Below are positions 2,838-64,000 of a stretch of 64,000 bases of DNA, one piece after another. Position 1 is the stretch's first letter; the number at the start of each line of letters is the position of its first letter. This DNA comes from Candidatus Aminicenantales bacterium (GTDB taxonomy: Bacteria; Acidobacteriota; Aminicenantia; Aminicenantales; UBA4085), in contig JBEKTZ010000002.1 of NCBI GenBank assembly GCA_049515535.1, positions 147,467 through 211,466 on the forward strand, given 5' to 3'. The position numbers were made by a program, and so were the translations under genes. The notes below the pieces were generated by a model. It was not told the origin of the DNA. It saw only the letters and a program-made list of their open reading frames with translations, and made no database searches.

Positions 2838-4562
2838 ATGATCATTAAAAAACGTTGGCCGTTCATCGGCCTGCTTGCGATCTTCCTCATCGTCGGCGCG
2901 TATGCGCTGGTCGCTCCGCGCCAAAGCGCCGGGGACGAAGCGTTCGCGGATTTCGATACGGGCGCCTGCACCGTCATCATGGTGGCGAAAGGCGCGTCGG
3001 CGGACGGCTCGACCCTGACGACCCATACCTGCGACTGCGGGATGTGCGATTGGACGTGGGGGCACATTCCCGCGGCCGATCACAAACCCGGTGAGACGCG
3101 CAGGATTTATCACATCAATCAGTACAAGACCTGGCCGCCCAAGGAAGGCCTAAAGTGGGATCTGATCAAGAAGGATTTCAGCGGGCTGGAGATCCCCGAA
3201 GTCCCGCACACCTATGCTTATCATCGCGGGATGTTCGGATATATGAACGAAAACCAGGTGGCGATCTCTGAATCCACGTTGGGCACGGTCCGGAAGCTCG
3301 TCAACAACACCCCCTCGGCGAAAATCGACCTGTCGACGCTCTCCCTCCTGGGGATGGAGCGATCCAAGACGGCGCGCGAGTGCATCCAGATCATGGGCGC
3401 GCTCGCCGAAAAATACGGATACGGCTTCAACGACGACGGCGAGATGTTCGCCGTCTCCGATCCCAACGAAGTCTGGATCTTCGAAATCATGCCCGTCGGC
3501 CCGCTGTGGACGCCGGGAAGCGGCAAGCCCGGCGCGGTCTGGTGCGCCGAGCGCCTCCCCGACGACAACGTCAGCGTTTGCCCCAACGAATCGCGGATCG
3601 GCGAGATCGATCTCGACAACAAGGAATTTTTCATGGCCTCCCCGAACGTCGTCTCCTGCGCCGTGGAAAACAAGCTTTATGATCCCGCCTCCGGCAAGCC
3701 GTTCAGCTGGAAGCGCGCTTATTCGCCGAAAGAGTTCAGCGCCACGAGCAGCCAGGGACGGGCGGCGCGCCTGTGGCGCTTCTTCGATATCGTGGCCCCT
3801 TCGCAGAAGATCAGCCCCGACACGCCGGACATGAACCTGCCGTTCTCGGTCAAACCCGACAAGAAGCTCTCGGCCCAGGACGTCATGAACATCACCCGCG
3901 ACAAGTGCTACGGCACGCCTTTCGATCCGGTCAAAGGCATCCGCGGCGGCCCCTACCTGAACCCCAATTACTGGAGCGGCACGCGGAAGATCAGCGTGGC
4001 CAACGTCGAATACACGAGCCTGGTCCAGTGCCGCGCCGGACTGCCCAACGACATCGGAGGCATCGTCTGGCTGGCTTTCGGCCCTCAGGACACATCGTGC
4101 TACATGCCCCTCTACGCGGGCATCACCGAGATGCCGAAATCCTTCATGATCGGCGACCATTTCGTGCTGAACCGGGCCTCGGCTCGCTGGGCGTTCGATT
4201 ACACGGACTTCCACACGCAAGTGGCCTACTCCGAAGCCATCGAGGACGTCAAAAAAGCGCAGATCGAATACGAGGCCGGCGTCGTCCAGAAGACGGCCGA
4301 GATCGACAAGCAGGCGCAGGATCTCCACGCTAAGAATCCGGCCAAGGCCCGCCAGTTCCTGACGAAATACTGCCTCGACAACGCCAACAAGGTCGTCAAC
4401 GCCTGGTGGGAACTGGGAGACAAGCTCCTGGTCAAATATAATCATTTCGGATTTTACGACGAGGCCAAGCGAAGCCGGGGCCGCGGCAAGCCCGCGGCGT
4501 CGATCTGGCAGAAAGCCGTAAGGATGATCGACGTTCTCGTCGATCAAGAACCTCAAAGATAA
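2838..4562 (+). CDS. C69-family dipeptidase, secreted, copy 2
   Basis: AAGGAG RBS. CTVIMVAKGASADGSTLTTHTCD motif. Colinear paralog of 1098..2825. Confidence 0.9.
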   Translation: MIIKKRWPFIGLLAIFLIVGAYALVAPRQSAGDEAFADFDTGACTVIMVAKGASADGSTLTTHTCDCGMCDWTWGHIPAADHKPGETRRIYHINQYKTWPPKEGLKWDLIKKDFSGLEIPEVPHTYAYHRGMFGYMNENQVAISESTLGTVRKLVNNTPSAKIDLSTLSLLGMERSKTARECIQIMGALAEKYGYGFNDDGEMFAVSDPNEVWIFEIMPVGPLWTPGSGKPGAVWCAERLPDDNVSVCPNESRIGEIDLDNKEFFMASPNVVSCAVENKLYDPASGKPFSWKRAYSPKEFSATSSQGRAARLWRFFDIVAPSQKISPDTPDMNLPFSVKPDKKLSAQDVMNITRDKCYGTPFDPVKGIRGGPYLNPNYWSGTRKISVANVEYTSLVQCRAGLPNDIGGIVWLAFGPQDTSCYMPLYAGITEMPKSFMIGDHFVLNRASARWAFDYTDFHTQVAYSEAIEDVKKAQIEYEAGVVQKTAEIDKQAQDLHAKNPAKARQFLTKYCLDNANKVVNAWWELGDKLLVKYNHFGFYDEAKRSRGRGKPAASIWQKAVRMIDVLVDQEPQR

Positions 4563-28608: not shown

Positions 28609-28791
28609 ATGGCGGGAGTCTATCGTCCTCGACATCCGGAGCGGACCGTTCTTTACCGGGTGCTGTTCCATCATTTCGAGCGGTTCGTCGCGGAATACGA
28701 GCGTTTCGCGAAGGCCTACGGCTACTTCCGGCCGATCGTCAAGGACGTCGTGGAGAAGTACCTCGACTGCGGCAATCCCCGCTGTGGGTTC
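28609..28791 (+). pseudogene. IS91-like transposase zinc-binding domain remnant
   Basis: [22 protein letters not shown]...[12 protein letters not shown] matches the Zn_Tnp_IS91-type N-terminus. The frame becomes unrelated after CGF and stops at 28830. Confidence 0.7.
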
Positions 28792-28912: not shown

Positions 28913-29791
28913 CTATTTTATCGCGCTCCAGATAACCTTGCCATCCGGCCCGAACAGAATCAGAGAAGATTCCGGATATACGATCGTTATTCCTTCTGGC
29001 GATATGATCTTTGTATTTCCTGCCCAGAAACGGGCCTTGCCATTTTCGTCCTTCAGTATCAGACATGGCTTGCCATTTTTGTCCACCATCAGGCTGACGC
29101 GGAATTTGTCATTTTCGTCAGCCAGCCCCAAGCCTGGGCCATCCTTGCTCATCATGGCCAGCTGGGCGCGGAACTTGCCATTTTCATCAAGCAGCCACAA
29201 GCCAGGGCCTTCTTTGCTCATGGTCAGCGCGGCACGATTTTTGCCATTTTCGTCCGATAGCAAAATGCTTGGGCCAGATTTGCCTGTATCTAATCCGATG
29301 GAGTTCTTGCCATTTTCATCCCGTAGCCATAGACCTTGGTCAGCTTTGCTCGCGCCCGCGCCAAGCAAGACGCGGTTCTTGCCGTTTTCGTCATCCAGCA
29401 CCAGGTCCGGGCCATTTTTACCCACGCCAAGCCGAGTGCGGAGGGCGTCATTTTCATCGTATAGTGCAAGGATCGGGCCTTTTTTTGTCACAGCCAACCT
29501 GGCGCCGACCTTGCCATTTTCGCCACACAGAGTCAGTTCCGGGCCATCTTGGGGCGACCATAGCAGGGCGCGGACCCCGCCTTTCTCGTCCTCAAGAATG
29601 AAGCTCCTCGCGCGGATCTGCTTAGACGTTCCCGGCTCTTGTGCCTGTGCTCGGATCACCGTTGTCTTAAACACGCCAGGTGCGACCAAGCCCCCAACTA
29701 CAAGCAGAATCACGCCTAGCAGCCAGCGGTTGCGCCGCTTCAGACGCCCCAGATCTTTTTCCATGTTTTCCAATCGTTCTTCAACGGTCAC
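28913..29791 (-). CDS. Membrane-anchored protein with about nine 22-aa beta-hairpin repeats
   Basis: GTG start; N-terminal coiled coil plus TM; repeats of GPxLxLxDENGKxRxxL. Confidence 0.8.
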   Translation of the reverse strand: MTVEERLENMEKDLGRLKRRNRWLLGVILLVVGGLVAPGVFKTTVIRAQAQEPGTSKQIRARSFILEDEKGGVRALLWSPQDGPELTLCGENGKVGARLAVTKKGPILALYDENDALRTRLGVGKNGPDLVLDDENGKNRVLLGAGASKADQGLWLRDENGKNSIGLDTGKSGPSILLSDENGKNRAALTMSKEGPGLWLLDENGKFRAQLAMMSKDGPGLGLADENDKFRVSLMVDKNGKPCLILKDENGKARFWAGNTKIISPEGITIVYPESSLILFGPDGKVIWSAIK

Positions 29792-29967: not shown

Positions 29968-30480
29968 ATGAATAAATCCAATCAAATTCACGAAATGTTT
30001 AGAAAAACGCCACGGGGAGAACGATATAAATTATTGTGGAGGATGACAAAGAGGTATTACGATGCTTTCAAATCGATAAATGAAGGCTCGCCAGAATTTC
30101 CTTTTTTATCAAAATTTGACATTGTGCAGTCTTTTTTTATTTTTTGCTACCATTTAAAAGACTGGCTCAATAATGATTTGAATATTAAAGTAGAAGACAT
30201 TCGCGAGCTATTTTCTTCAAATCCAGAACTCAGATATTGCGCGGATCTTTGTGATGGATTTAAACATTTGCGACGCACAAAAAAGCTTCATAGTAAGTCG
30301 CAGCCGGATTATGAAAAGAAAGTTTTTGAATTTAGAGAAGAAATTCGTATTCCAGGATGTAAATTCATTATCTCTACAGATCAAGGAGATATGGACGCCT
30401 TTATATTAGCCTCGAAATGTATGGATATTTGGTATGAATTCATCGTGAAATATGACCCTACAATTTCTAAAGAGTTGTAA
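29968..30480 (+). CDS. AT-rich hypothetical protein (weak HEPN-like resemblance)
   Basis: Intact 170-aa ORF in AT-rich DNA with GAGGGGGG RBS; FFIFCYHLKDW...CADLCDGFKH. Confidence 0.6.
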   Translation: MNKSNQIHEMFRKTPRGERYKLLWRMTKRYYDAFKSINEGSPEFPFLSKFDIVQSFFIFCYHLKDWLNNDLNIKVEDIRELFSSNPELRYCADLCDGFKHLRRTKKLHSKSQPDYEKKVFEFREEIRIPGCKFIISTDQGDMDAFILASKCMDIWYEFIVKYDPTISKEL

Positions 30481-30640
30481 AACTGAGGCGGGGCCCGGGG
30501 AAGTGACGCTGTGACAGCGATGTCGCGCCTCGCTGGGAGAGACGCTCGAGCGATAGATTTTTCTCATGGGAGGGCGATCGCTTCAATGAAGGCTCCAGTC
30601 GGCCGACTAAACTCTCTGAAGGAAAAGCGGCGCGAGGGCA

Positions 30641-31156
30641 CTACCTTTTTCTTTTGCCTTTTGGCAAGGCAAACTTAGGCTTTGGCTTGAATGGTTTATT
30701 TACAAAATCAATACGCTCCATGGAGGGAGACCTGAACGAAAATACCGTTTGATTATAGATATTTGTAACAGCGAAGTCCCCGCTTCCGATGATGTCCATT
30801 CCAATTATTACATCGGCGTTTGTTATGTTAGCCTTGGTTACTTTAAGATTAGAAATGACGGTCTTGTTTGGTAACCATATATTGACTAGATATTGATTGC
30901 TCCTTTGGGGACCGCTCCCATATTGGACCTCGACTATGCCGATGGGGCTTAGCTGGCAATCTTGAATCACTTTCTCAGTAATTGCTGAATTGGTAGCCCC
31001 TGTATCCCATATTGCGATGTACTCTTTGCACTTGGCATCATCTGATGACATCAATCCCTGGGTAGGATTAATCGCTTCAGACACTAATACCTTATTGCTT
31101 AGAACATTTGAGTGACTTGGATAAGCAGACGTGAAAGAAAAAGTGCGGATTGCCAC
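30641..31156 (-). CDS. Retropepsin-like aspartic protease
   Basis: IAIWDTGATNSAI catalytic motif and VIIGMDII (ILGxD) motif; basic C-tail. Confidence 0.85.
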   Translation of the reverse strand: MAIRTFSFTSAYPSHSNVLSNKVLVSEAINPTQGLMSSDDAKCKEYIAIWDTGATNSAITEKVIQDCQLSPIGIVEVQYGSGPQRSNQYLVNIWLPNKTVISNLKVTKANITNADVIIGMDIIGSGDFAVTNIYNQTVFSFRSPSMERIDFVNKPFKPKPKFALPKGKRKR

Positions 31157-31165
31157 TGTAATTGA

Positions 31166-31408
31166 CTAAACGAACTCAACCCGTGAATGAAATGTCTGTG
31201 TATATACGGCTTTTCCAGCTTCGCACTTTTGAACCAGGAAGGTCCCTCTCTTTTCTTTTTTTGATGTCTCCGTAATTGCTTCCATTAAATCATCGAAAAC
31301 CCCAATTACGGCCTCATTCTTAATGACGATATACTTCCCCCCGTGTTTCTTGACTAATTCGTCTTGATTTTTTACGAAGTATTCAAATTCTTTTTCGAGT
31401 GGCAACAT
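31166..31408 (-). CDS. Small DUF5678-like protein
   Basis: EKEFEYFVKNQDELVKKHGGKYIVIKNEAVIGVFD pattern; ends 9 bp upstream of the protease start. Confidence 0.65.
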   Translation of the reverse strand: MLPLEKEFEYFVKNQDELVKKHGGKYIVIKNEAVIGVFDDLMEAITETSKKEKRGTFLVQKCEAGKAVYTQTFHSRVEFV

Positions 31409-31693
31409 TTTTCTCTTCTACTGTTTAATATTCATCTAAAATACTGCCAGATGTCAAGCTCAGGTTTTCTGACTGAGAATCCCCGCTTTCGCCGAATGTC
31501 CTCATCATCGAGCCTATCTTCCGCCTAGAAGCGTTTCTATGGCTCTTGAGTACCCAATCCGAATACAGACGGGATTCGTGTGGACAAATTGAGGACAAAA
31601 CCACTAAAAATGGCTCAATTTAAGATACTCAGGCCTAAAAAACTAAATCAGAAAAACCAATGGAACCTAAAGAAAACGAAGGAAATAAGAGAG

Positions 31694-31767
31694 CGCGCGA
31701 GAGAGGACTCGAACCTCCGACCTTCTGATTCGTAGTCAGGCGCTCTATCCAACTGAGCTACTCGCGC
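31694..31767 (-). tRNA. tRNA-Arg(ACG), CCA not encoded
   Basis: GCGCGAG acceptor pairs with CTCGCGC; TAGCTCAGTTGGATAGAGC D-arm; CT-ACG-AA anticodon loop; GGAGG-TTCGAGT-CCTCT T-arm. Confidence 0.97.
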
Positions 31768-31806
31768 GCCGGAGTGGGGATATTATGCCAGAATTCGGCC
31801 GATTTA

Positions 31807-32811
31807 TTAAGAATTAATTTTCAAGACGGCGGCGCCGGTGATCCGGCCTTCCTTGAGACGCCGCAAGACGATATTCGCGTCCTCAAGAGCGAAAACTTGG
31901 ACCATGGTCTTGATCGGGATTTCCGTCGCGATCTTTAGCAGCTCTTCCCCGTCCCGCCTTGTCGCGTTGGCCACGCTCCGCAGGATCCGTTCCTGAGCCA
32001 AATGCTTCCGATGATCCAGCTCCGGAATCGGCGTCATATAAATGCCGGCCAGCACGACGATCCCGCCCCTTTCCGTATTCGCCAGCGCGAGCGGAACGAG
32101 ATCTCCGGCCGGAGCGAAGATGATCGATCCGCTCATTTTCGAGGGAGGCGCATCGTGGGCCGTTCCGGTCCAGACCGCGCCGAAGCGCCGGGCCAATTCC
32201 TGGTGCGCGCGGCTCCGCGAAAAGACAAAGACTTTGGCTCCCCAATGAACCGCGACTTGGATGGCGATGTGGGCCGAAGCCCCGAAGCCGTAGAGGCCAA
32301 GCGTCCCGCCCGCCTTGATTCCGCTCAATCGCAGCGCCCTGTAGCCGATGATCCCGGCGCACATAAGCGGCGCGGCTTCCTCGTCGGAAAACGTCCCGGG
32401 GATCGCATAAGCGAATTTTTCGGGAACGGTCATATATTCGGCGTATCCGCCAGCGGCATGATAACCGGAAAAGCGGCCGGCGACGCATAAATTCTCCTGA
32501 CCGTTGAGACAAAATCGGCACGTCCCGCACGCCGAACGCAGCCAGGCCGCGCCGATCCTGTCTCCTTTTTTAAAACGCGCGCACCCTTCCCCCGTTTTTT
32601 CCACGATTCCGATCGCCTGATGGCCGGGAATGATTGGCAATCCGACTTCCGGAAGTTCGCCCTCCGCCGTATGGAGGTCGGTATGGCAGACGCCGCAGAC
32701 GCCGACGCGGATCGACAATTCGCCGGCGGCGGGTTCCGGGATCGATACATCGGCGAATTCCAGAGGATTCCGCTCGATGGGGCCGAATTTCCGCAGGATC
32801 GCGGCTTTCAT
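31807..32811 (-). CDS. Zinc-dependent alcohol dehydrogenase family protein
   Basis: GVCHTD, PGHQ, CGTCRFC...ENLC, LMCAG and GLYGFGASAH motifs. Confidence 0.92.
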   Translation of the reverse strand: MKAAILRKFGPIERNPLEFADVSIPEPAAGELSIRVGVCGVCHTDLHTAEGELPEVGLPIIPGHQAIGIVEKTGEGCARFKKGDRIGAAWLRSACGTCRFCLNGQENLCVAGRFSGYHAAGGYAEYMTVPEKFAYAIPGTFSDEEAAPLMCAGIIGYRALRLSGIKAGGTLGLYGFGASAHIAIQVAVHWGAKVFVFSRSRAHQELARRFGAVWTGTAHDAPPSKMSGSIIFAPAGDLVPLALANTERGGIVVLAGIYMTPIPELDHRKHLAQERILRSVANATRRDGEELLKIATEIPIKTMVQVFALEDANIVLRRLKEGRITGAAVLKINS

Positions 32812-45904: not shown

Positions 45905-48118
45905 ATGGGCAGCTCCATCAAAGCGCGCTCTAAGATCGTCCTGGCTGCGCTTTTATGGCTTGGCGTGGGGTTGCCTCTCTTTGCCTATATCGGGCCGGGC
46001 GCCGGATTCGCTTTCCTGTCCTCGTTTCTCGTCCTGTTTCTGACATTTATCCTCGCCGTCTTTTCTTTTCTCTCCTGGCCGTTCCGCTTCTTTTTTCGCC
46101 TGATTCGAGGCGGCAAGGCCTACAAGAAAAGCCGCACGGACCAGGTCGTCATCATCGGCCTGGACGGTCTCGCGCCCGAATTGGCCGAGAAATTCATGGC
46201 CGAGGGCAAACTCCCCAATCTGGCAAAGCTGAAAAAAGAAGGCTTTTACGCCCGGCTCCAAACGACGACGCCGGCCATTTCTCCCGTCGCCTGGTCTTCC
46301 TTCATGACGGGTTCCAACCCTTCCAAACACAACATCTTCGATTTTTTGAGCAGGGACCCGAGGACATATCTGCCCGATCTGTCCTCCGCCCGCATCGGCC
46401 CCCCAAAAAAAACGCTTTCCATCGGCAAATATAAAATCCCGCTTTCCAAGGCCGAGATCCGGGGAATGCGAAAAAGCGTCCCATTTTGGAAGATCCTCGG
46501 AGACCATGGGATTTTCAGCACCATCCTGAGGGTGCCGATCACATTCCCGCCCGAGAAATTCAAAGGGCATTTGCTTTCCGGGATGTGCACGCCCGACCTC
46601 AAAGGCAGCCAGGGGACATTCTCCTTTTATACGTCCGACCCGGCCAAAATCCAGAAGCGCGAAGGCGGCATCGCGATTCCGATCGAGGTCAAAAACGATC
46701 GCGTGGAAACGTTCATTTCGGGTCCCGAAAATACCATGCTGAAGGAACCCAAGGAAATCCGCCTTCCCCTGACGATCGTGATCGACCGCCTGAAGGATGA
46801 AGCGCGGATCGAAACGGCGGGACGGAAACTCACGCTCAAGAAAAATGTCTTCTCGCCGTGGACAAGAATCACCTTCCGGCCGGGTCTGGGCTTCAAGATC
46901 AAATCCATATGCCGCTTCTATGTCTCCCAGATCTCGCCTCATTTTGAGATGTACGTCACTCCGCTCAACATCGATCCGGAAAAGCCCGCCCTGCCGATCT
47001 CCCATCCCTTCATCTATTCCGTGTATCTGGCCAAACTCCTGGGCAGCTTCATCACTCTGGGCGAAGCCAACGATACCTGGGCCTTGAACGAAAACGCGCT
47101 CAGTGAAAGCGCGTTTTTGGACTTGACCTATTCCAATCACAAGGAATGGGAAGGGATGTTGTTCAACGCCCTGGACAAGACAAAAAAGGGCCTTGTCGTC
47201 TGCGTCTTCGAGACGACGGACAGCATTTCCCACATGTTCTGGCGTTATCTGGACAAAGCCCATCCGGCCCTGAAAAAAGGGCCGTCTGCTTTGGGGCCTC
47301 AGGTCATCGAAGATCTCTTCGTCAAGATGGACGAAATGATCGGGCGCGTCAGGGAAAAAATGTCCGCCGAAAGCGCGCTTTTCATCATGTCCGATCACGG
47401 TTTCAAGTCGTTCCGCCGCGGCGTCAATGTGAACGCCTGGCTTCACAAAAACGGCTATCTGTTTTTGAAAGGCGAAAAAACCGAATCCGGGGAATGGTTC
47501 AAGGACGTGGATTGGAAAAGAACCAAGGCCTACGGCTTGGGACTGGGCGGATTGTATATCAATCAGAAGAACCGCGAGGCCGAGGGTATCGTCGACTCCG
47601 ATCAGGAGGCCAAAGCCCTGCGGGCCGAGCTTCTCCGGAGGCTCAGCGGTTTGAAAGACGAGCAAAATGGAGAGGTCGCGATCAACCGCGTCTATGACCG
47701 GGACGAAATCTATTCCGGCCCATATAAAGATAACGCGCCCGATCTGATCATCGGTTACAATGCCGGCTATCGGGCCTCTTGGGAAGGCGTCGCCGGGATC
47801 GTAAAAGACGCGATTTTCGAGGATAACGTCAAAGCCTGGAGCGGAGACCATTGTATCGACCCGCCGTGCGTTCCCGGCGTGCTTTTCTCGAGCCTCAAAC
47901 TGGGCGTCAAGGGACGAGCCTTCGCGGCGGAAATTGACCCGCGGGCAAAGCCCGGGGCCCCGTCCGCCGTCGAGACGCCTTCGATCATGGATATCGCCCC
48001 AACCGTGCTCGAGCTTTTCGGCCTTGAACCGCCGGCCCATATGGACGGCCGCTCGCTGCTCGAAAAAAAACTCCCGTCCGGATCCTCTCGGCCGCAAGAA
48101 AGAGAGAAGCCAAAGTGA
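45905..48118 (+). CDS. NPP-type phosphodiesterase 2, membrane anchored, with in-frame repeat insertion
   Basis: N-terminal hydrophobic segments; IGLDG, PAISPVAW, TDSISH, SDHGF and GDH motifs. Confidence 0.88.
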   Translation: MGSSIKARSKIVLAALLWLGVGLPLFAYIGPGAGFAFLSSFLVLFLTFILAVFSFLSWPFRFFFRLIRGGKAYKKSRTDQVVIIGLDGLAPELAEKFMAEGKLPNLAKLKKEGFYARLQTTTPAISPVAWSSFMTGSNPSKHNIFDFLSRDPRTYLPDLSSARIGPPKKTLSIGKYKIPLSKAEIRGMRKSVPFWKILGDHGIFSTILRVPITFPPEKFKGHLLSGMCTPDLKGSQGTFSFYTSDPAKIQKREGGIAIPIEVKNDRVETFISGPENTMLKEPKEIRLPLTIVIDRLKDEARIETAGRKLTLKKNVFSPWTRITFRPGLGFKIKSICRFYVSQISPHFEMYVTPLNIDPEKPALPISHPFIYSVYLAKLLGSFITLGEANDTWALNENALSESAFLDLTYSNHKEWEGMLFNALDKTKKGLVVCVFETTDSISHMFWRYLDKAHPALKKGPSALGPQVIEDLFVKMDEMIGRVREKMSAESALFIMSDHGFKSFRRGVNVNAWLHKNGYLFLKGEKTESGEWFKDVDWKRTKAYGLGLGGLYINQKNREAEGIVDSDQEAKALRAELLRRLSGLKDEQNGEVAINRVYDRDEIYSGPYKDNAPDLIIGYNAGYRASWEGVAGIVKDAIFEDNVKAWSGDHCIDPPCVPGVLFSSLKLGVKGRAFAAEIDPRAKPGAPSAVETPSIMDIAPTVLELFGLEPPAHMDGRSLLEKKLPSGSSRPQEREKPK
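47906..47974 (+). repeat. In-frame palindromic element, short copy (69 bp)
   Basis: 62/69 identical to the two flanking blocks of 63210-63103(-). Encodes VKGRAFAAEIDPRAKPGAPSAVE. Confidence 0.85.
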
Positions 48119-58881: not shown

Positions 58882-59676
58882 TCAATCCTCGAAGATATAT
58901 TCTTTCCTGGAAAAGACCAGGCAGGCCAAGCAGAGAAAAACGACCGTAAGGACGAGGAGCGTCACTATGGCCACGGCTGGATGACTGGGTTCCAGGTTGA
59001 ACTTTAGAAAAGAAATCTTTCCGTCATCCGAAGACATCGCGGGCAGCAAAGATTTCAAGTAATGTATGATCGTAAATTTTTGTGTTGAGCCCGGAAAATA
59101 CTGGACGACGTTCTCCCATCCAAAACTGAAAAACAGGCCGAAAATGACGGCCCTTTTGAAGAACGTCCCCAGAAATGTGAAGAAGGCCGTATAACAGAAG
59201 AGGCCGGTGACCAACACGCCCATGCTTCGAAAAAGCATCGTCCAGGCGGACGGCTCGGAGATCTGGCCGATGTGGAGAATCAGGAAAGACACGACGATGC
59301 CGGCGGCCATGGCGCCTATGAGGAAGGCCATATAAGCCGCATACTTGCCCAGGATGATAGCGGATTTCGAGACAGGCCGGGTCGTCAGGTAGGTCAGCGT
59401 CTTTCCTTCCAGTTCCTCCGAACAAATCGATGTCCCATAGAAAAGGGCCAGCATGAGGATCAGGAATTGCAGGTAGAAGCTCATGATGATGTTGAGAAAA
59501 ACGGACGGACCGTCGATGAGAGCGCCTCTGGAGAAGATCTGGTTGAGCTGAAGAACGAGCGAAATCGCCACGGGCAGGCAGCCGATGAGGAAAAAAGCCT
59601 TGGTCCGGCGCGCCCTGCGCCCGATAAAAAAGAACAGCGAGAAAATGGAGCGCACAGCGTTTCGGGTCATCGTCAT
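58882..59676 (-). CDS. ABC-2 type transporter permease
   Basis: EELEGKTLTYLTTRPVSK...GKY motif; 6 TM segments. Confidence 0.88.
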   Translation of the reverse strand: MTMTRNAVRSIFSLFFFIGRRARRTKAFFLIGCLPVAISLVLQLNQIFSRGALIDGPSVFLNIIMSFYLQFLILMLALFYGTSICSEELEGKTLTYLTTRPVSKSAIILGKYAAYMAFLIGAMAAGIVVSFLILHIGQISEPSAWTMLFRSMGVLVTGLFCYTAFFTFLGTFFKRAVIFGLFFSFGWENVVQYFPGSTQKFTIIHYLKSLLPAMSSDDGKISFLKFNLEPSHPAVAIVTLLVLTVVFLCLACLVFSRKEYIFED

Positions 59677-60599
59677 TTTCCTATGAGATAATCGAAAACC
59701 GCTTGAAGATTGTCGTCGGGCGACGTGATCTCCTCGACGTCGATGTCGCCGTCGACGATCAGGCGGGGCAAGAGCTCGAAGAATTTATCGCGGTTCCGCG
59801 TCTCGAAGACGACCGTATCCGGCGCCGCGCCGAACCGGATATCCATGACCGATGGCTCTTCGACCAGGCGGGCGGCCAAACCGCGGGCCTCGCTGCATCT
59901 CACGGAGACCATGTGGGGATGCTGATCGATCAGATCGCGGATGTAGTGAATGTCGCCCTGGGCCAAGATTTTCCCCTGATGGAGAAGGATGATCGTCCGC
60001 GTCAGGGCTTCGATCTCGGGCAGGACATGGCTCGAAATGACCACGGTCTTTCCAGCGTCCTTTTGATCCTTGAGCATCCGGATGACCTTGCGCTTGCTCA
60101 GAGGATCCAGCCCGTTCAACGGCTCATCGAGGATGATGATCTCCGGGTCGTGGGCCACGGCTTGGGCCACCTTAAGCCTCTGCCGCATGCCGCGGCTATA
60201 GCCCCTGACCAACCGATCTTTGTCTTTATAAAGCTCGACGAAATCGAGCGCTTGTTTCGCCTTGGATTCAATCTCGCAGCGCGAAAACGAGTACAGACGC
60301 AACAGGCTCGTCAAAAACTCCCAACCCGTCATCCCTTCGTAGAAAGCGTCCTGTTCCGGGCAAAATCCGATCGACGCGAATATCCGGGAATTGTTCCAGA
60401 TATTCTCGCCGCGAATGGAGGCCCATCCGATGCTCGGCTTTATCTGTCCCGTGATGAGCTTCAGCAGCGTGGATTTTCCGGCCCCATTCGGGCCGAGAAG
60501 CCCGGTGATCCCCGGCTCGATCTCGAGCGAGACGTCGGACAGGCCGAGGATGTTGCCGTACCATTTGCTGAGCCTTTGCGTCCGGATGACGGCCGTCAC
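59673..60599 (-). CDS. ABC transporter ATP-binding protein
   Basis: GTG start; GPNGAGKST, YSRGMRQR and LDEP motifs. Confidence 0.92.
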   Translation of the reverse strand: MTAVIRTQRLSKWYGNILGLSDVSLEIEPGITGLLGPNGAGKSTLLKLITGQIKPSIGWASIRGENIWNNSRIFASIGFCPEQDAFYEGMTGWEFLTSLLRLYSFSRCEIESKAKQALDFVELYKDKDRLVRGYSRGMRQRLKVAQAVAHDPEIIILDEPLNGLDPLSKRKVIRMLKDQKDAGKTVVISSHVLPEIEALTRTIILLHQGKILAQGDIHYIRDLIDQHPHMVSVRCSEARGLAARLVEEPSVMDIRFGAAPDTVVFETRNRDKFFELLPRLIVDGDIDVEEITSPDDNLQAVFDYLIGK

Positions 60600-61486
60600 C
60601 GAATCACCTCGACGCTCCGTATTTTTTTTATCAGCACGAAGCCGGACAGGCCGCAGACGGCGGCGAGGATGATCAGGGAATAGAACCACGGAACATTGTA
60701 AAGAGGCCTGACCCGGAAAAGAAACGCGCCGATTTGTTGGAGGTTGCCGTGGATCGAGAACAGCGCGAAATACGGACTTCTGAAACTCAAGTAAAAAATA
60801 CCGAAACAGATATCCGAGAGGATATAGATCAGAATCATGAAAATAGAGACAAAAAGACGGCTCCGGCTGAGGCAGGAAACAAGGAGCGTGTAAAAGGCGA
60901 AGAAGATCGAGAAAAGGAAGGAGCAGGCGATCACGGACAGGGGAAGCCAAGGATAGTCCGTCAGAAATTTAAAGCTTCCGGAAAGGACGAGCTTAGCGAT
61001 GATGAAAAGGAGGCCGGGCACGAGGGTCATGGTCAGTAGGAAGAACAGGACCGTCGAAATTTTTCCCAGAAAATAATCCCGTCTGCGGAGCGGCCTGGAA
61101 AAATAGAGCTGAAGGGAATTGTTTTTCAAATCGTCGGTCATGAGCCAGGCGCCGCTGGGGATCAAGGCGATGATGATCAGAAGCAAGATAAACCAGCTCG
61201 TGAAATAGTCCTTGAACCTTTCCGGGCTGGCCTGGATGGCCGTCAGAACCTGGGTCGGCCCCCCCCTCCGGCCTCTGAAAATGGATTGGAAATCCTCGAA
61301 GTGTTCGGAGATATAGATCATCGTGAGAGGGACGACCATCGGAAGGAGCGAAAACAGATAGCTGAAGATGAACAGTTTCCGCTTCAGCGCCTGGCGGATG
61401 CCCCGCCTCGCGATCGGCCACCAGGGAAACCGCCGTTCGACGAAGGTTCCCTGCCAATGGACGTATCCCCGTTCCGAGATCGGCAT
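60596..61486 (-). CDS. ABC-2 type transporter permease
   Basis: DDLKNNSLQLYFSRPLRRRDYFLGK motif; TGATG coupling with the upstream ATPase. Confidence 0.88.
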   Translation of the reverse strand: MPISERGYVHWQGTFVERRFPWWPIARRGIRQALKRKLFIFSYLFSLLPMVVPLTMIYISEHFEDFQSIFRGRRGGPTQVLTAIQASPERFKDYFTSWFILLLIIIALIPSGAWLMTDDLKNNSLQLYFSRPLRRRDYFLGKISTVLFFLLTMTLVPGLLFIIAKLVLSGSFKFLTDYPWLPLSVIACSFLFSIFFAFYTLLVSCLSRSRLFVSIFMILIYILSDICFGIFYLSFRSPYFALFSIHGNLQQIGAFLFRVRPLYNVPWFYSLIILAAVCGLSGFVLIKKIRSVEVIR

Positions 61487-62397
61487 CAATCCACTCCCAC
61501 CGTCTGGGCGAAAAGGTCCTCGAGCGAGGTCCGGCTCTTGACGAAATACCGGATTTGAACATCTTCCCGGACCGCCGCCCGGAAGATCTCGCGGCGAGAA
61601 AGGTTCGCCGGCATATAGATTTTCATGAGCTGTTCTTCGGTCTCTTCAACGCGGCAGCCCAGGTCTTTCAAGACTTGGAGAAACCTCCCGGTCTCCCCCT
61701 TCGTTCTAATCTCATATAGGCTGTATTGAATTTCCTTCAGGGTTTCGAGTTCTCCCTGGGCCGCGACCGCTCCCTTGTTCAGGATGACGACATGCGAACA
61801 GGTGAATTCGATGTCGGTGAGGATGTGAGACGACACGAGGATCTGGATGTCTTTCTTGGAAGAGATGTCTTTGATGAGGTCGAGAATCTCGTTTCGTCCC
61901 TGAGGGTCCAAGTTGCTCGTCGGCTCATCCAGAAAAAGGAGCTTCGGATCGTGGACGAGGGCCTGGGCCAGCTTCAGCCGTTGTTTCATTCCGGCCGAAT
62001 ACGTCTCAAGAGAACGATAGCGCGCCTCACCAAGCCCGACATAAAAAAGGACATCATGAGCCCGTTTCATGGCTTCCTGCCGGGGCATGCCCGAGAGCTC
62101 GCCGAAATAGGCGGTGAATGTCACAGCATCCATTCCTGGGATGAGACAGTCGTCCTCGGGCATGTACCCGACAGACCGGCGGATGAGAAACTGATCCTTT
62201 TGGATGTCATAGCCAAGGACCCGGCCTTCGCCCCGGTCGGGCCGGAGAAAGCCGAGCAGGATCCGGAGGAGCGTGCTTTTGCCCGCGCCGTTCGGACCCA
62301 GGAGTCCGCAGGCGCCTTCGCCGAGGGCAAGGGTCACTCCGTCAAGCGCGGTGATCTTCCCATAATGGAAATGGATATCCTTGAGTTCGATGTTCAT
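61486..62397 (-). CDS. ABC transporter ATP-binding protein
   Basis: GPNGAGKST, YSAGMKQR and LDEP motifs. Confidence 0.92.
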   Translation of the reverse strand: MNIELKDIHFHYGKITALDGVTLALGEGACGLLGPNGAGKSTLLRILLGFLRPDRGEGRVLGYDIQKDQFLIRRSVGYMPEDDCLIPGMDAVTFTAYFGELSGMPRQEAMKRAHDVLFYVGLGEARYRSLETYSAGMKQRLKLAQALVHDPKLLFLDEPTSNLDPQGRNEILDLIKDISSKKDIQILVSSHILTDIEFTCSHVVILNKGAVAAQGELETLKEIQYSLYEIRTKGETGRFLQVLKDLGCRVEETEEQLMKIYMPANLSRREIFRAAVREDVQIRYFVKSRTSLEDLFAQTVGVD

Positions 62398-62415: not shown

Positions 62416-64000
62416 CTAAGATTTACGAGATTTCATCAATAAAGTTCCAGCCGGCCGGCCCTCGCCGTGGACAAGCGCCCGGTAAGTCTTCTCGATCCGG
62501 TCCCATTTCTCTTCGCGATCGAGCGACCAGTATCGCCCGATGACGGTCGCGACCTCGCCGATGCCGAGCGCCCGGCACGTTTCCTCCACCTTTTCGACAT
62601 AGATCGCGCCGCTCTCGGGCATTTCTCCGCGCCGTCCTATGAAGCCATGGACGTGGACCTTGGTCAAGCCCGCGTCTTTGGCGAGCTTGAGAAGGGCGAA
62701 AAGGTGCCTGATCGTGCCGTGAGAGCTGTAATGGGAAATGATGCCCATAAGATGAAGAGCCCGATGCTCCCGCTTGGCTTTATCCATGACGCCGAGGAAG
62801 GCCTCATTGCGGAAAAAACTCCCGTCCTCGACGGCCTTGTCGATCCGGACGCGATCGAGAAGGACGCGGCGTCCCGCCCCCAAATGAAGGTGGCCGGCTT
62901 CGGAATTCCCGACGGTTCCCGCGGGCAAGCCGACGGCCTCTCCCGAAGCTTGAAGCAGGGACCGGGGGAATCGGGACCATAGGTCGTCGAAGTGCGGCGT
63001 CCTGGATTGCGCGATCAAATTACCGCTTTGAACCGCGCTCATCCCCCATCCGTCCAGAATGAGCACGACGACTTTTTTCCGGATCGGCGCGTGACGAGGC
63101 CGCTCGACAGCGGCTGGGGCCCCGGGCTTTGTCCGGGGGTCCACTTCCGCCGTACTCGCCCGTGGATATAAGCCACAGGCGAGTGGCGAGCCGAAGGCTC
63201 GTCCCTTGACGAAGAGGCTATGTCCCGTCATTTCTGGGGGTTTCGGGATGTCCAGGAGATCGAGAATCGTCGGAGCGACATCGGCCAGTTCGCCGGATTC
63301 GCGCAAATTCGGGTAGGCCGGCTTTCCGGACGCATCATCGGAGAAAATGAACGGCACGGGATTTTTTGTGTGTCCCGTATTGATCGTTCCGTCCTGATAC
63401 TCCCATTCTTCGACCGTCCCGTGATCGGCAGTGACGATCAGAGCGACCGCTCGCCGCCGCGCTTCCTCGATGACGCGCCCCAATTCCTTGTCCACGGTTT
63501 CAACCGCGCGAATGGCCGCTTCTTTGTTTTCGATATGGCCGACGACGTCGACGTTGGCGAAATTGGCCATGACGACATCGAAGCGAGGGTCGCCGATTTT
63601 ATCGATGACGGCGTCCGCCACGGCCGCGGCGCTCATTTCAGGCCTTTGATCGTAGTTGGAAACGTCCTGGGGAGAAGGAACGATCACCCGTTCCTCTCCC
63701 GGAAAAACGGCATCGGACTTGCCGTTCATGAAAAATCCGATATGGGTCGCCTTCTCGGACTCCGCGATCTTGGCCAGACGAAGCCCAGCCTTGGAAAGAA
63801 CTTCGGCCAACGTGTTCTTGATCTTAACGTCCGCGGGGAAGGCGACGCGGACGCGCAGTTTGGGATCGTATTCGATCATGGTCACAAAGTCGAGATCCAG
63901 ACTTTTTTCGACCGGAAAATGAGAAAAGGCCGGATCGATCAGGCATTGGGTGATCTCGATCTCGCGCTCGCCCCGAATGTCGTAAAAAATGACGGAGTCG
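62416..64000 (-). CDS. gpmI: 2,3-bisphosphoglycerate-independent phosphoglycerate mutase, domain-permuted, 5'-truncated
   Basis: Frame is open to the window edge (DSVIFYDIRGER...). Native C-half motifs (ESEK, ANVDVVGH, ADHG, GHT, LADVAPT) precede native N-half motifs (LILDGWG, GNSEAGH, GRYW). Confidence 0.85.
   Translation of the reverse strand, partial: DSVIFYDIRGEREIEITQCLIDPAFSHFPVEKSLDLDFVTMIEYDPKLRVRVAFPADVKIKNTLAEVLSKAGLRLAKIAESEKATHIGFFMNGKSDAVFPGEERVIVPSPQDVSNYDQRPEMSAAAVADAVIDKIGDPRFDVVMANFANVDVVGHIENKEAAIRAVETVDKELGRVIEEARRRAVALIVTADHGTVEEWEYQDGTINTGHTKNPVPFIFSDDASGKPAYPNLRESGELADVAPTILDLLDIPKPPEMTGHSLFVKGRAFGSPLACGLYPRASTAEVDPRTKPGAPAAVERPRHAPIRKKVVVLILDGWGMSAVQSGNLIAQSRTPHFDDLWSRFPRSLLQASGEAVGLPAGTVGNSEAGHLHLGAGRRVLLDRVRIDKAVEDGSFFRNEAFLGVMDKAKREHRALHLMGIISHYSSHGTIRHLFALLKLAKDAGLTKVHVHGFIGRRGEMPESGAIYVEKVEETCRALGIGEVATVIGRYWSLDREEKWDRIEKTYRALVHGEGRPAGTLLMKSRKS
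63103..63210 (-). repeat. In-frame palindromic element, long copy (108 bp, three hairpins)
   Basis: CGAGCC-TTC-GGCTCG, ACTCGCCTGTGG-N7-CCACGGGCGAGT and CCCCGGAC-AAA-GCCCGGGG. Encodes VKGRAFGSPLACGLYPRASTAEVDPRTKPGAPAAVE. Confidence 0.85.

Follow-up and report, generated by a model that had tools for sequence, protein, structure and literature searches.

The closest described counterparts of the element reported here are the Rickettsia palindromic elements (RPEs), which, as far as the summary in PMC10969869 goes, form hairpins, carry a stop-free reading frame and lie in frame in unrelated genes (Ogata et al. 2000, as summarised in PMC10969869). Some of the classical bacterial MITEs (miniature transposable elements with inverted repeats; Correia/NEMIS, ERIC, BOX, Nezha) also form in-frame fusions (PMC10969869). 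We have analysed a stretch of 64,000 nucleotides from a Candidatus Aminicenantales bacterium (the window; contig JBEKTZ010000002.1, positions 147,467 to 211,466 of the forward strand), in which a hairpin-forming repeat of 102 bp lies inside gpmI, the gene for a circularly permuted iPGM (cofactor-independent phosphoglycerate mutase, an enzyme of glycolysis). A further point of comparison is given by the repetitive extragenic palindromes and their mosaics (REP/BIME) and by the palindrome-associated elements derived from IS200/IS605, all of which are mobilised by HUH Y1 transposases. An earlier note on this DNA had proposed that the repeat forms the linker between the native C- and N-termini of the enzyme, and had offered two explanations: either the element fused two halves or tandem copies of the gene and so drove the permutation, or it inserted into a linker that already existed and was tolerant. 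We conclude that the repeat is very probably a passenger in the linker of an iPGM that was already permuted, the permutation being the older event and the insert recent and tolerated.

The gpmI open reading frame (ORF) runs beyond the end of the window; codons 45-571 and the stop lie inside it and the predicted start is at ~64131. Its full-length product, P0001, has 571 amino acids and is 100% identical to the window fragment. The ORF scores 491.6 bits against TIGR01307 (cut-off 330.65) in two stretches of permuted order, the first 263 residues in the window being matched by model positions 248-504 and the sequence downstream of them by the model's N-terminal part. Pfam identifies Metalloenzyme (PF01676, 2.3e-62) and iPGM_N (PF06415, 6.8e-47), again in an unusual order. 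Residues 12-309 of P0001 correspond to residues 220-511 of PDB entry 1EJJ, and residues 351-559 to 3-211; because the halves map to 1EJJ in swapped order, the enzyme is a genuine circular permutant. P0001 belongs with GpmI/iPGM by the presence of both domains and of the presumed catalytic Ser and Mn ligands, and departs from the canonical collinear order of N-terminal phosphatase segment, transferase domain and C-terminal phosphatase segment. Each half shares ~40% identity with the Bacillus stearothermophilus iPGM, both domains of canonical GpmI (1EJJ; TIGR01307) are conserved, and the metal and catalytic residues are presumably all kept. What differs is the circularly permuted order, which places the new termini within the transferase domain, between canonical positions ~211 and ~220; the old termini of the permutant are connected by ~10 residues.

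On the minus strand the junction reads ...EMTGHSLF-VKGRAFGSPLACGLYPRASTAEVDPRTKPGAPAA-VERPRHAPIRKKVVVLILDGWG..., the insert lying in frame between the old C-terminus, ...GHSLF, and the old N-terminus, ...KKVVVLILDGWG. The inserted stretch matches the family model with an E-value of 3e-33 (nhmmer) and departs from the family consensus at 4 positions. A second copy, in the short form, lies in frame in a phosphodiesterase gene. The stretch 47905-47974 matches 63103-63152 (86% over 50 nt, E 7e-7) and 63192-63211 (20/20), so that it lacks exactly the 39 bp of 63153-63191, and the adjacent phosphodiesterase paralogue has a 21-residue gap exactly where the short copy sits. Beyond these two, a profile search (nhmmer) finds no copy in the window. 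A 111-nt stretch at the iPGM site folds as three hairpins closed by a fourth helix, with minimum free energies of -32.8 kcal/mol for the DNA (z -4.2) and of -61.9 kcal/mol for the RNA (z -4.7); none of 200 shuffled sequences folds as well. An Rfam scan of the region places no family near its threshold (best score 16 bits, against a gathering score of at least 42). The triple-hairpin repeat that the earlier note had seen at the GHSLF junction is thus borne out by the ORF reading, the second copy and the folding, and copy alignment and folding agree with its description of the missing 39 bp as the 3′ arm of hairpin 1 together with the middle hairpin. Its length of 108 bp requires correction: the inserted sequence is the 102 bp of 63109-63210, and the GTCGAG at 63103-63108 is already present in the empty site. 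The features are collected in Table 1.

Table 1. Coordinates of the permuted iPGM gene, the inserted repeat and its second copy in the window.
Feature	Position	Strand	Evidence
Circularly permuted gpmI (iPGM)	62416..64000	-	ORF; Pfam; TIGR01307; mapping to 1EJJ
Part homologous to the C-terminal portion of canonical iPGM (1EJJ ~255-511), ending ...PKPPEMTGHSLF	63211..64000	-	TIGR01307, 1EJJ mapping
Part homologous to canonical iPGM ~5-211 (VVVLILDGWG ... ALVHGEG), then short tail and stop	62416..63072	-	TIGR01307, 1EJJ mapping
Native linker VERPRHAPIRKK, old C-terminus to old N-terminus	63073..63108	-	Alignment A1, linker-length census
Inserted 102-bp repeat, long form, 34 codons, VKGRAFGSPLACGLYPRASTAEVDPRTKPGAPAA, residues 308-341 of P0001	63109..63210	-	Empty/filled alignments with L001, L211, L212
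39-bp module B: middle hairpin and 3′ arm of hairpin 1; missing in the short form	63153..63191	-	
Third hairpin CCCCGGACAAAGCCCGGGG, best-conserved core of the family	63120..63138	-	
GTCGAG (codons Val-Glu), target sequence present already in the empty allele	63103..63108	-	
63-bp short form, in frame as VKGRAFAAEIDPRAKPGAPSA; GTCGAG next to it at 47969-47974	47906..47968	+	
Host gene of the short copy, 737 aa, type I phosphodiesterase/nucleotide pyrophosphatase, Pfam PF01663 Phosphodiest	45905..48118	+	

The homologue set comprised the best 120 protein matches to the window protein (59-100% identity), which are all permuted since all are collinear with it. In 118 of the 120 (59-83% identity) the spacing from DVAPT to DGWG is 41-43 residues, with no insert; the only longer spacings are those of P0001 and P0002, the same two proteins that alone carry extra junction residues (34 and 21, respectively) in an alignment of 18 homologues. 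Distant permutants were sought by searching 1.84 billion cluster representatives exhaustively, without a profile, and were recognised by one matched stretch over approximately residues 24-538. Full-length permuted proteins were found at 37-47% identity, partly from Limnochordia and from a Pseudomonadota metagenome-assembled genome (MAG). Fifteen were examined, four of which gave no junction-motif match, and all 11 readable junctions (41-47% identity) have short linkers free of the element. Across the 118 homologues and these 11 distant proteins the linker is 10-12 residues long, variable in sequence and element-free. Judged from the protein sequences, the permutation is ancient, common to proteins down to ~40% identity including some from outside Aminicenantes, and it is older and broader than the element.

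Permuted iPGMs form a large family. There are more than 118 clusters at 59% identity or above in Aminicenantes (P0003-P0120 among them) and more than a dozen further 50%-identity clusters at 37-47% identity (within P0203-P0317), with the permutation point unchanged. At NCBI these proteins are often named merely 'alkaline phosphatase family protein' or 'hypothetical protein', and our literature searches found no paper describing a permuted iPGM. The family could interest enzymologists who study domain motion in iPGM.

Comparison of closely related loci dates the insert. The empty site reads CTCTTC-GTCGAGCGG in L001, L211 and L212; relative to it the window allele has 102 bp inserted and the allele of L002 has 63 bp at the identical nucleotide. 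In the 18-sequence alignment the junction insert of P0002 is 21 residues, VKGRAFAAEMDPRAKPGAPAA, the short form of the same element. The junction is also empty in the outgroup L209 (TTTCTCGAACGA), where the site reads CTCGAA, without GTCGA. Over 1482 shared nucleotide columns the divergence from the window is 1.2-1.6% for the empty alleles, 5.4% for L002 and ~10% for L209, the gene tree is (((L001, L211/L212), window), L002), and neighbouring genes are common to all iPGM loci compared. The insertion is recent, empty, 63-bp and 102-bp alleles all occurring within ~5% nucleotide divergence. The long allele is also recorded in an independent assembly (P0389, JGI/IMG, ENA; 248,841 bp, against 367,550 bp for P0001, NCBI), and the empty allele in five further contigs. 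A non-autonomous mosaic hairpin repeat would thus have entered the Val-Glu codons (GTCGAG) of the 12-residue linker VERPRHAPIRKK. The locus amounts to a natural experiment, in which one enzyme carries three linker alleles (0, +21 and +34 residues) among closely related uncultured bacteria.

The effect on the protein appears to be slight. In the AlphaFold2 model of P0001, built with 18 sequences, residues 311-350, which comprise insert and linker, have a predicted local distance difference test (pLDDT) of ~29 and no secondary structure, and the remainder forms a confident two-domain fold with a predicted template-modelling score (pTM) of 0.75. Foldseek aligns this model to iPGM crystal structures over ~300 columns at a time, as expected because P0001 is a permutant. 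The D, S, D/H, DH and H columns are invariant in alignment A1, P0001 included, and are presumably the catalytic Ser and metal ligands known from the B. stearothermophilus enzyme. Because these presumed catalytic residues are intact, the P0001 enzyme is most likely still active. The 34-residue insert, predicted to be disordered, is most likely translated as a surface loop, which would be tolerated because the unit lengths of the element are multiples of three, it is stop-free in the three forward frames, and its site is a surface linker.

To survey the family to which the insert belongs, public collections of metagenomes and genomes were scanned for its 22-nt core hairpin. Among the matches listed there are at least ~190 unique flanked copies, nearly all on Candidatus Aminicenantes contigs; in one MAG (JAUYDS01) the core is matched at least 53 times, with many of the matches lying at the ends of contigs. 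Copy lengths fall into sharp classes of 63, 102 and 141 bp. The family is young, since the copies are ~96% identical (96% mean identity for 62 long copies from many samples). Each copy is a mosaic of a head (GTCAAGGGACGAGCCTTCG), the 39-bp hairpin module where present, a core (CGGCGGAAGTG-GACCCCCGGGCAAAGCCCGGGG) and the tail (CCCCGGCCGCC), with further hairpin-plus-core units interposed in some copies; the head and tail modules have the sequences GTCAAGGGACGAGCC and CCCCGGCCGCCGTSGA. In the helices of the 62 long copies 96.7% of cells are paired, compared with ~40% in slid controls. Both forms are stop-free in all three forward frames and in one or two reverse frames.

Copies were scored as in frame when both sides had the same best frame, no stop intervened and at least 150 nt were open on each side, the frame being chosen by a codon-usage score trained on the window. 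Of 135 copies with sufficient flank, at least 22 lie strictly in frame within ORFs, in four different frames, 13 of them in the VKGRAF... frame; the figure is a lower bound because the phosphodiesterase copy in the window itself narrowly misses the criterion. Most copies (~80%) are not strictly intragenic. In four further pairs of empty and filled loci the net insertion amounts to exactly 63 or 102 bp, and a fifth (L090/L058) has a non-canonical tail and an ambiguous 3′ junction. L032 (9747-9853) and L132 (~3385-3447) hold the long and the short form, respectively, at one orthologous site, and orthologous sites in L044 compared with L207 and L053 also show differences in length form or other internal deletions. 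Since orthologous sites differ in form, the 39-bp module has repeatedly been acquired or dropped in place, its boundaries staying identical.

The repeat also has consequences for annotation. A query with the 62-residue compound peptide of the element returned at least 80 short spurious ORFs and no real host proteins among the matches listed. At least 80 'hypothetical proteins' of 40-107 aa (P0121-P0200) are mere translations of the repeat, most of the named ones coming from one Aminicenantes MAG, and such entries are an annotation artefact. A family that breaks assemblies and yields spurious 'hypothetical proteins' by the dozen matters for the annotation of these MAGs. The identical 22-nt core, GACCCCCGGGCAAAGCCCGGGG, occurs in planctomycetes as well (L136, L137, L146, L177, L179, L190 and L194-L196; Lacipirellula and other Planctomycetota), where another GC-rich hairpin like it lies ~50 nt upstream and the flanks are unrelated; this may reflect convergence or a distant relationship. 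Literature searches found no paper on such repeats in Aminicenantes.

The ends of the element are distinctive. In the consensus they read GTCAAGGGACG... and ...CCCCGGCCGCC; these are not inverted copies of each other, so there are no terminal inverted repeats, and the five empty/filled comparisons show no target-site duplication, the net insertions being exactly 102 or 63 bp. At the iPGM site only GTC is ambiguous, the 5′ GTC being constant and the 3′ flank GTC or GTG. Because it has neither terminal inverted repeats nor a target duplication, the element is not a classical MITE. Over 105 copies the tail is followed by a conserved GTSGA (G 95%, T 79%, S 91%, G 94%, A 62%), and no constraint is seen in the 10 nt upstream of the head. 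GTCGA exists beforehand in the empty iPGM allele; at two further empty sites the sequence is GGCGA or another one. Hairpins lie near either end of the long form, and the 5′ one is gone from the short form.

Several of these observations bear on whether the element could have made the permutation, by fusing tandem gpmI copies or halves, the short linkers elsewhere being eroded remnants. That it is stop-free in three frames and lies exactly at the junction of the old C- and N-termini is what makes this idea attractive. The empty allele, however, shares 98.5% identity and is set apart by a clean indel of 102 bp that leaves the native linker whole, and a nhmmer search finds no second element-like stretch in that linker. 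The 118 homologues and 11 distant permutants have variable, element-free linkers of 10-12 residues, and a family that is young and essentially confined to Aminicenantes contrasts with permuted iPGMs that occur also in Limnochordia and other MAGs. Because close and distant permuted iPGMs alike have short element-free linkers, the element was not the cause of the permutation, and we give that explanation next to no probability. The linker comparison proposed in the earlier note, once carried out, thus speaks against its first alternative, which falls, and together with the empty alleles lends strong support to the second, insertion into a tolerant linker that was already there; to say that the element forms the linker was an overstatement, the native VERPRHAPIRKK being intact beside the insert. 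An appealing story, of a mobile element driving the permutation of an enzyme, is thereby removed. Nor is the insert likely to be an artefact of assembly or binning, with the gene having absorbed a collapsed repeat. Copies of the repeat are many, and in MAGs they often lie at contig ends, but a second source records the long allele on another contig (P0389), the short allele sits on a separate contig, and the insert keeps the reading frame perfectly and has exact junctions, all of which makes such an error exceedingly unlikely. Removal of the insert before or during translation, as an intron-like or bypass-type intervening sequence that leaves the protein unaltered, would draw on the very stable RNA structure (-61.9 kcal/mol). 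We consider it very unlikely, because the Rfam scan gave no match, there are no intron or intein features, and the intragenic copies keep the frame, lack stops and have lengths in multiples of three, none of which removal at the RNA level would need.

Our preferred reading, of a passenger recently inserted into a pre-existing linker, has also to be set against results that weigh on the other side. The element is present in the window and L002, yet absent from the L001/L211 clade nested between them, so that there may have been either one insertion with later seamless loss or recombination, or two insertions at one nucleotide. Under a single gain, the element would have inserted before the L002 split and then been lost seamlessly, or replaced by another allele, in the L001/L211 clade, with a 39-bp change in addition. 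Under two independent insertions at a hot-spot nucleotide, the long form would have entered the window lineage and the short form the L002 lineage, with no excision and with the L001/L211 clade simply never hit. The tree demands two events whichever scenario holds, the conserved 3′ flank GTSGA and the position of both window copies before GTCGAG suggest target specificity, the outgroup site (CTCGAA) is empty, and long and short forms are both abundant; two insertions are accordingly a distinct possibility, if an unlikely one. Set against them are the two tail variants shared by the iPGM copies of the window and L002 (CCCCAGCyGCT, compared with the family consensus CCCCGGCCGCC), a combination that just 3 copies out of 110 have, one being an unrelated copy, and the L032/L132 pair, in which the 39-bp module has changed in place. 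The shared rare variants favour a single insertion and do not settle the question. Transfer in a long recombination tract from an L002-like strain was considered and is ruled out, because the window flanks directly beside the insert match L001, not L002. Further points on the same side are that translation of the insert, its rough neutrality and the activity of the enzyme are what we infer; that a covariation test on the three or four helices of the 62 long copies gave no signal, which is uninformative because the copies are 96% identical and leaves the hairpins to thermodynamics; and that in ~1.4 Mb of loci we found neither a transposase linked to the element (Y1, RAYT or other) nor any head-to-tail pair more than 260 bp apart or enclosing a gene.

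How the repeat moves can be addressed tentatively. HUH-type single-strand transposition, as in IS200/IS605, REP/RAYT and IS91, is marked by one conserved flank, absence of a target duplication, hairpin-rich ends and seamless excision. The element has one conserved flank, no duplication and hairpin-rich ends, and an empty allele occurs seamlessly within a filled clade; for these reasons it would move by target-preferring transposition without duplication and with seamless excision, possibly by an HUH-type enzyme. The likeness to IS200/IS605-end and REP-type stems drawn in the earlier note is a lead, which the conserved flank and the lack of terminal inverted repeats and target duplication fit; membership in those classes is undemonstrated and the ~1.4 Mb of loci turned up no cognate transposase. 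A broader proposal is that this is an active, coding-compatible element, mobilised by an HUH enzyme, that inserts next to TCSAC, excises seamlessly and adds or removes loops of 21 or 34 residues across the proteome. We regard it as doubtful; if true, the iPGM linker, with its empty, 63-bp and 102-bp alleles in co-occurring strains, would be a live example of such loop traffic.

The ORFs that lie between inverted copies in L155 and L189 were judged unrelated to the element; they are ordinary genes and one that, from our reading of its sequence, is presumably an IS630-like transposase. IS91-like (Y2 HUH) genes occur in the same genomes and are not linked to the ends of the element. They are present in multiple copies in other Aminicenantes loci (L114, 9651-10079 and 11118-12326), and in several of the copies the hairpin element lies in frame between the zinc-finger and catalytic parts. 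The window has a truncated 5′ gene fragment at 28609-28790 (+), with ...CGNPRCGF in its translation, which we take to be an IS91-like transposase (zinc-finger/Y2 HUH) from a reading of its sequence, no family-library match being involved.

An ABC-transporter cluster of ATPase, permease and ATPase (59673-62397, -) follows downstream of the iPGM gene. The same arrangement is found in all relatives (L001, L002, L209 and L211), which have a peptidase S9/tricorn-like gene upstream. Elsewhere in the window, an ORF at 28913-29791 (-) consists of imperfect tandem repeats of 66-72 nt with a recurring D-E-N-G-K motif; a CRISPR array at 28.9-29.8 kb was considered and rejected, the repeats being imperfect, 66-72 nt long and coding. 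The stretch 30001-32000 has a low GC content (43%, against ~57% elsewhere) and holds a tRNA-Arg(ACG) at 31693-31767 (-) and a small ORF at 30641-31156 (-) with weak aspartyl-protease-like Pfam matches. It may be an island or an integration site.

Among known repeat classes, the classical MITEs resemble the Aminicenantes element in being small, non-autonomous, high-copy repeats with occasional in-frame insertion into genes, and differ from it in the terminal inverted repeats and target-site duplication that it lacks in all five empty/filled comparisons. With REP/BIME and the IS200/IS605-derived elements it shares GC-rich imperfect palindromes arranged as mosaics of modules, the absence of terminal inverted repeats and target duplication, one conserved flank (TCSAC on the complementary strand), and a seamless empty site compatible with precise excision. 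In contrast to those elements, no associated RAYT or TnpA was found in the ~1.4 Mb of loci, there is no evident GTAG-type head, and a sizeable share of the copies is intragenic, so that membership in this class is unproven.

The RPEs offer the nearest parallel. Like them, the Aminicenantes element is a short, dispersed hairpin repeat (~60-150 bp) with a conserved stop-free frame and recurrent in-frame insertions in unrelated genes, and it adds a peptide segment at fold-compatible sites; the features that define an RPE-like class, namely many copies per genome, hairpin formation and recurrent in-frame, stop-free insertion, are all found. The host, however, belongs to an unrelated phylum, and the likeness is one of behaviour, a sequence relationship not being expected. 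The element also differs in that most copies (~80%) are not strictly intragenic, in its mosaic build with optional modules of 39 bp and more, and in the pentanucleotide conserved at one flank. The family looks currently active, because empty, short and long alleles coexist among close strains. By analogy, then, its behaviour is that of the RPEs and of other small in-frame repeats, and its architecture resembles the REP/BIME mosaics, which documents for a candidate phylum, outside Rickettsia, a family of RPE-like repeats that is compatible with coding.

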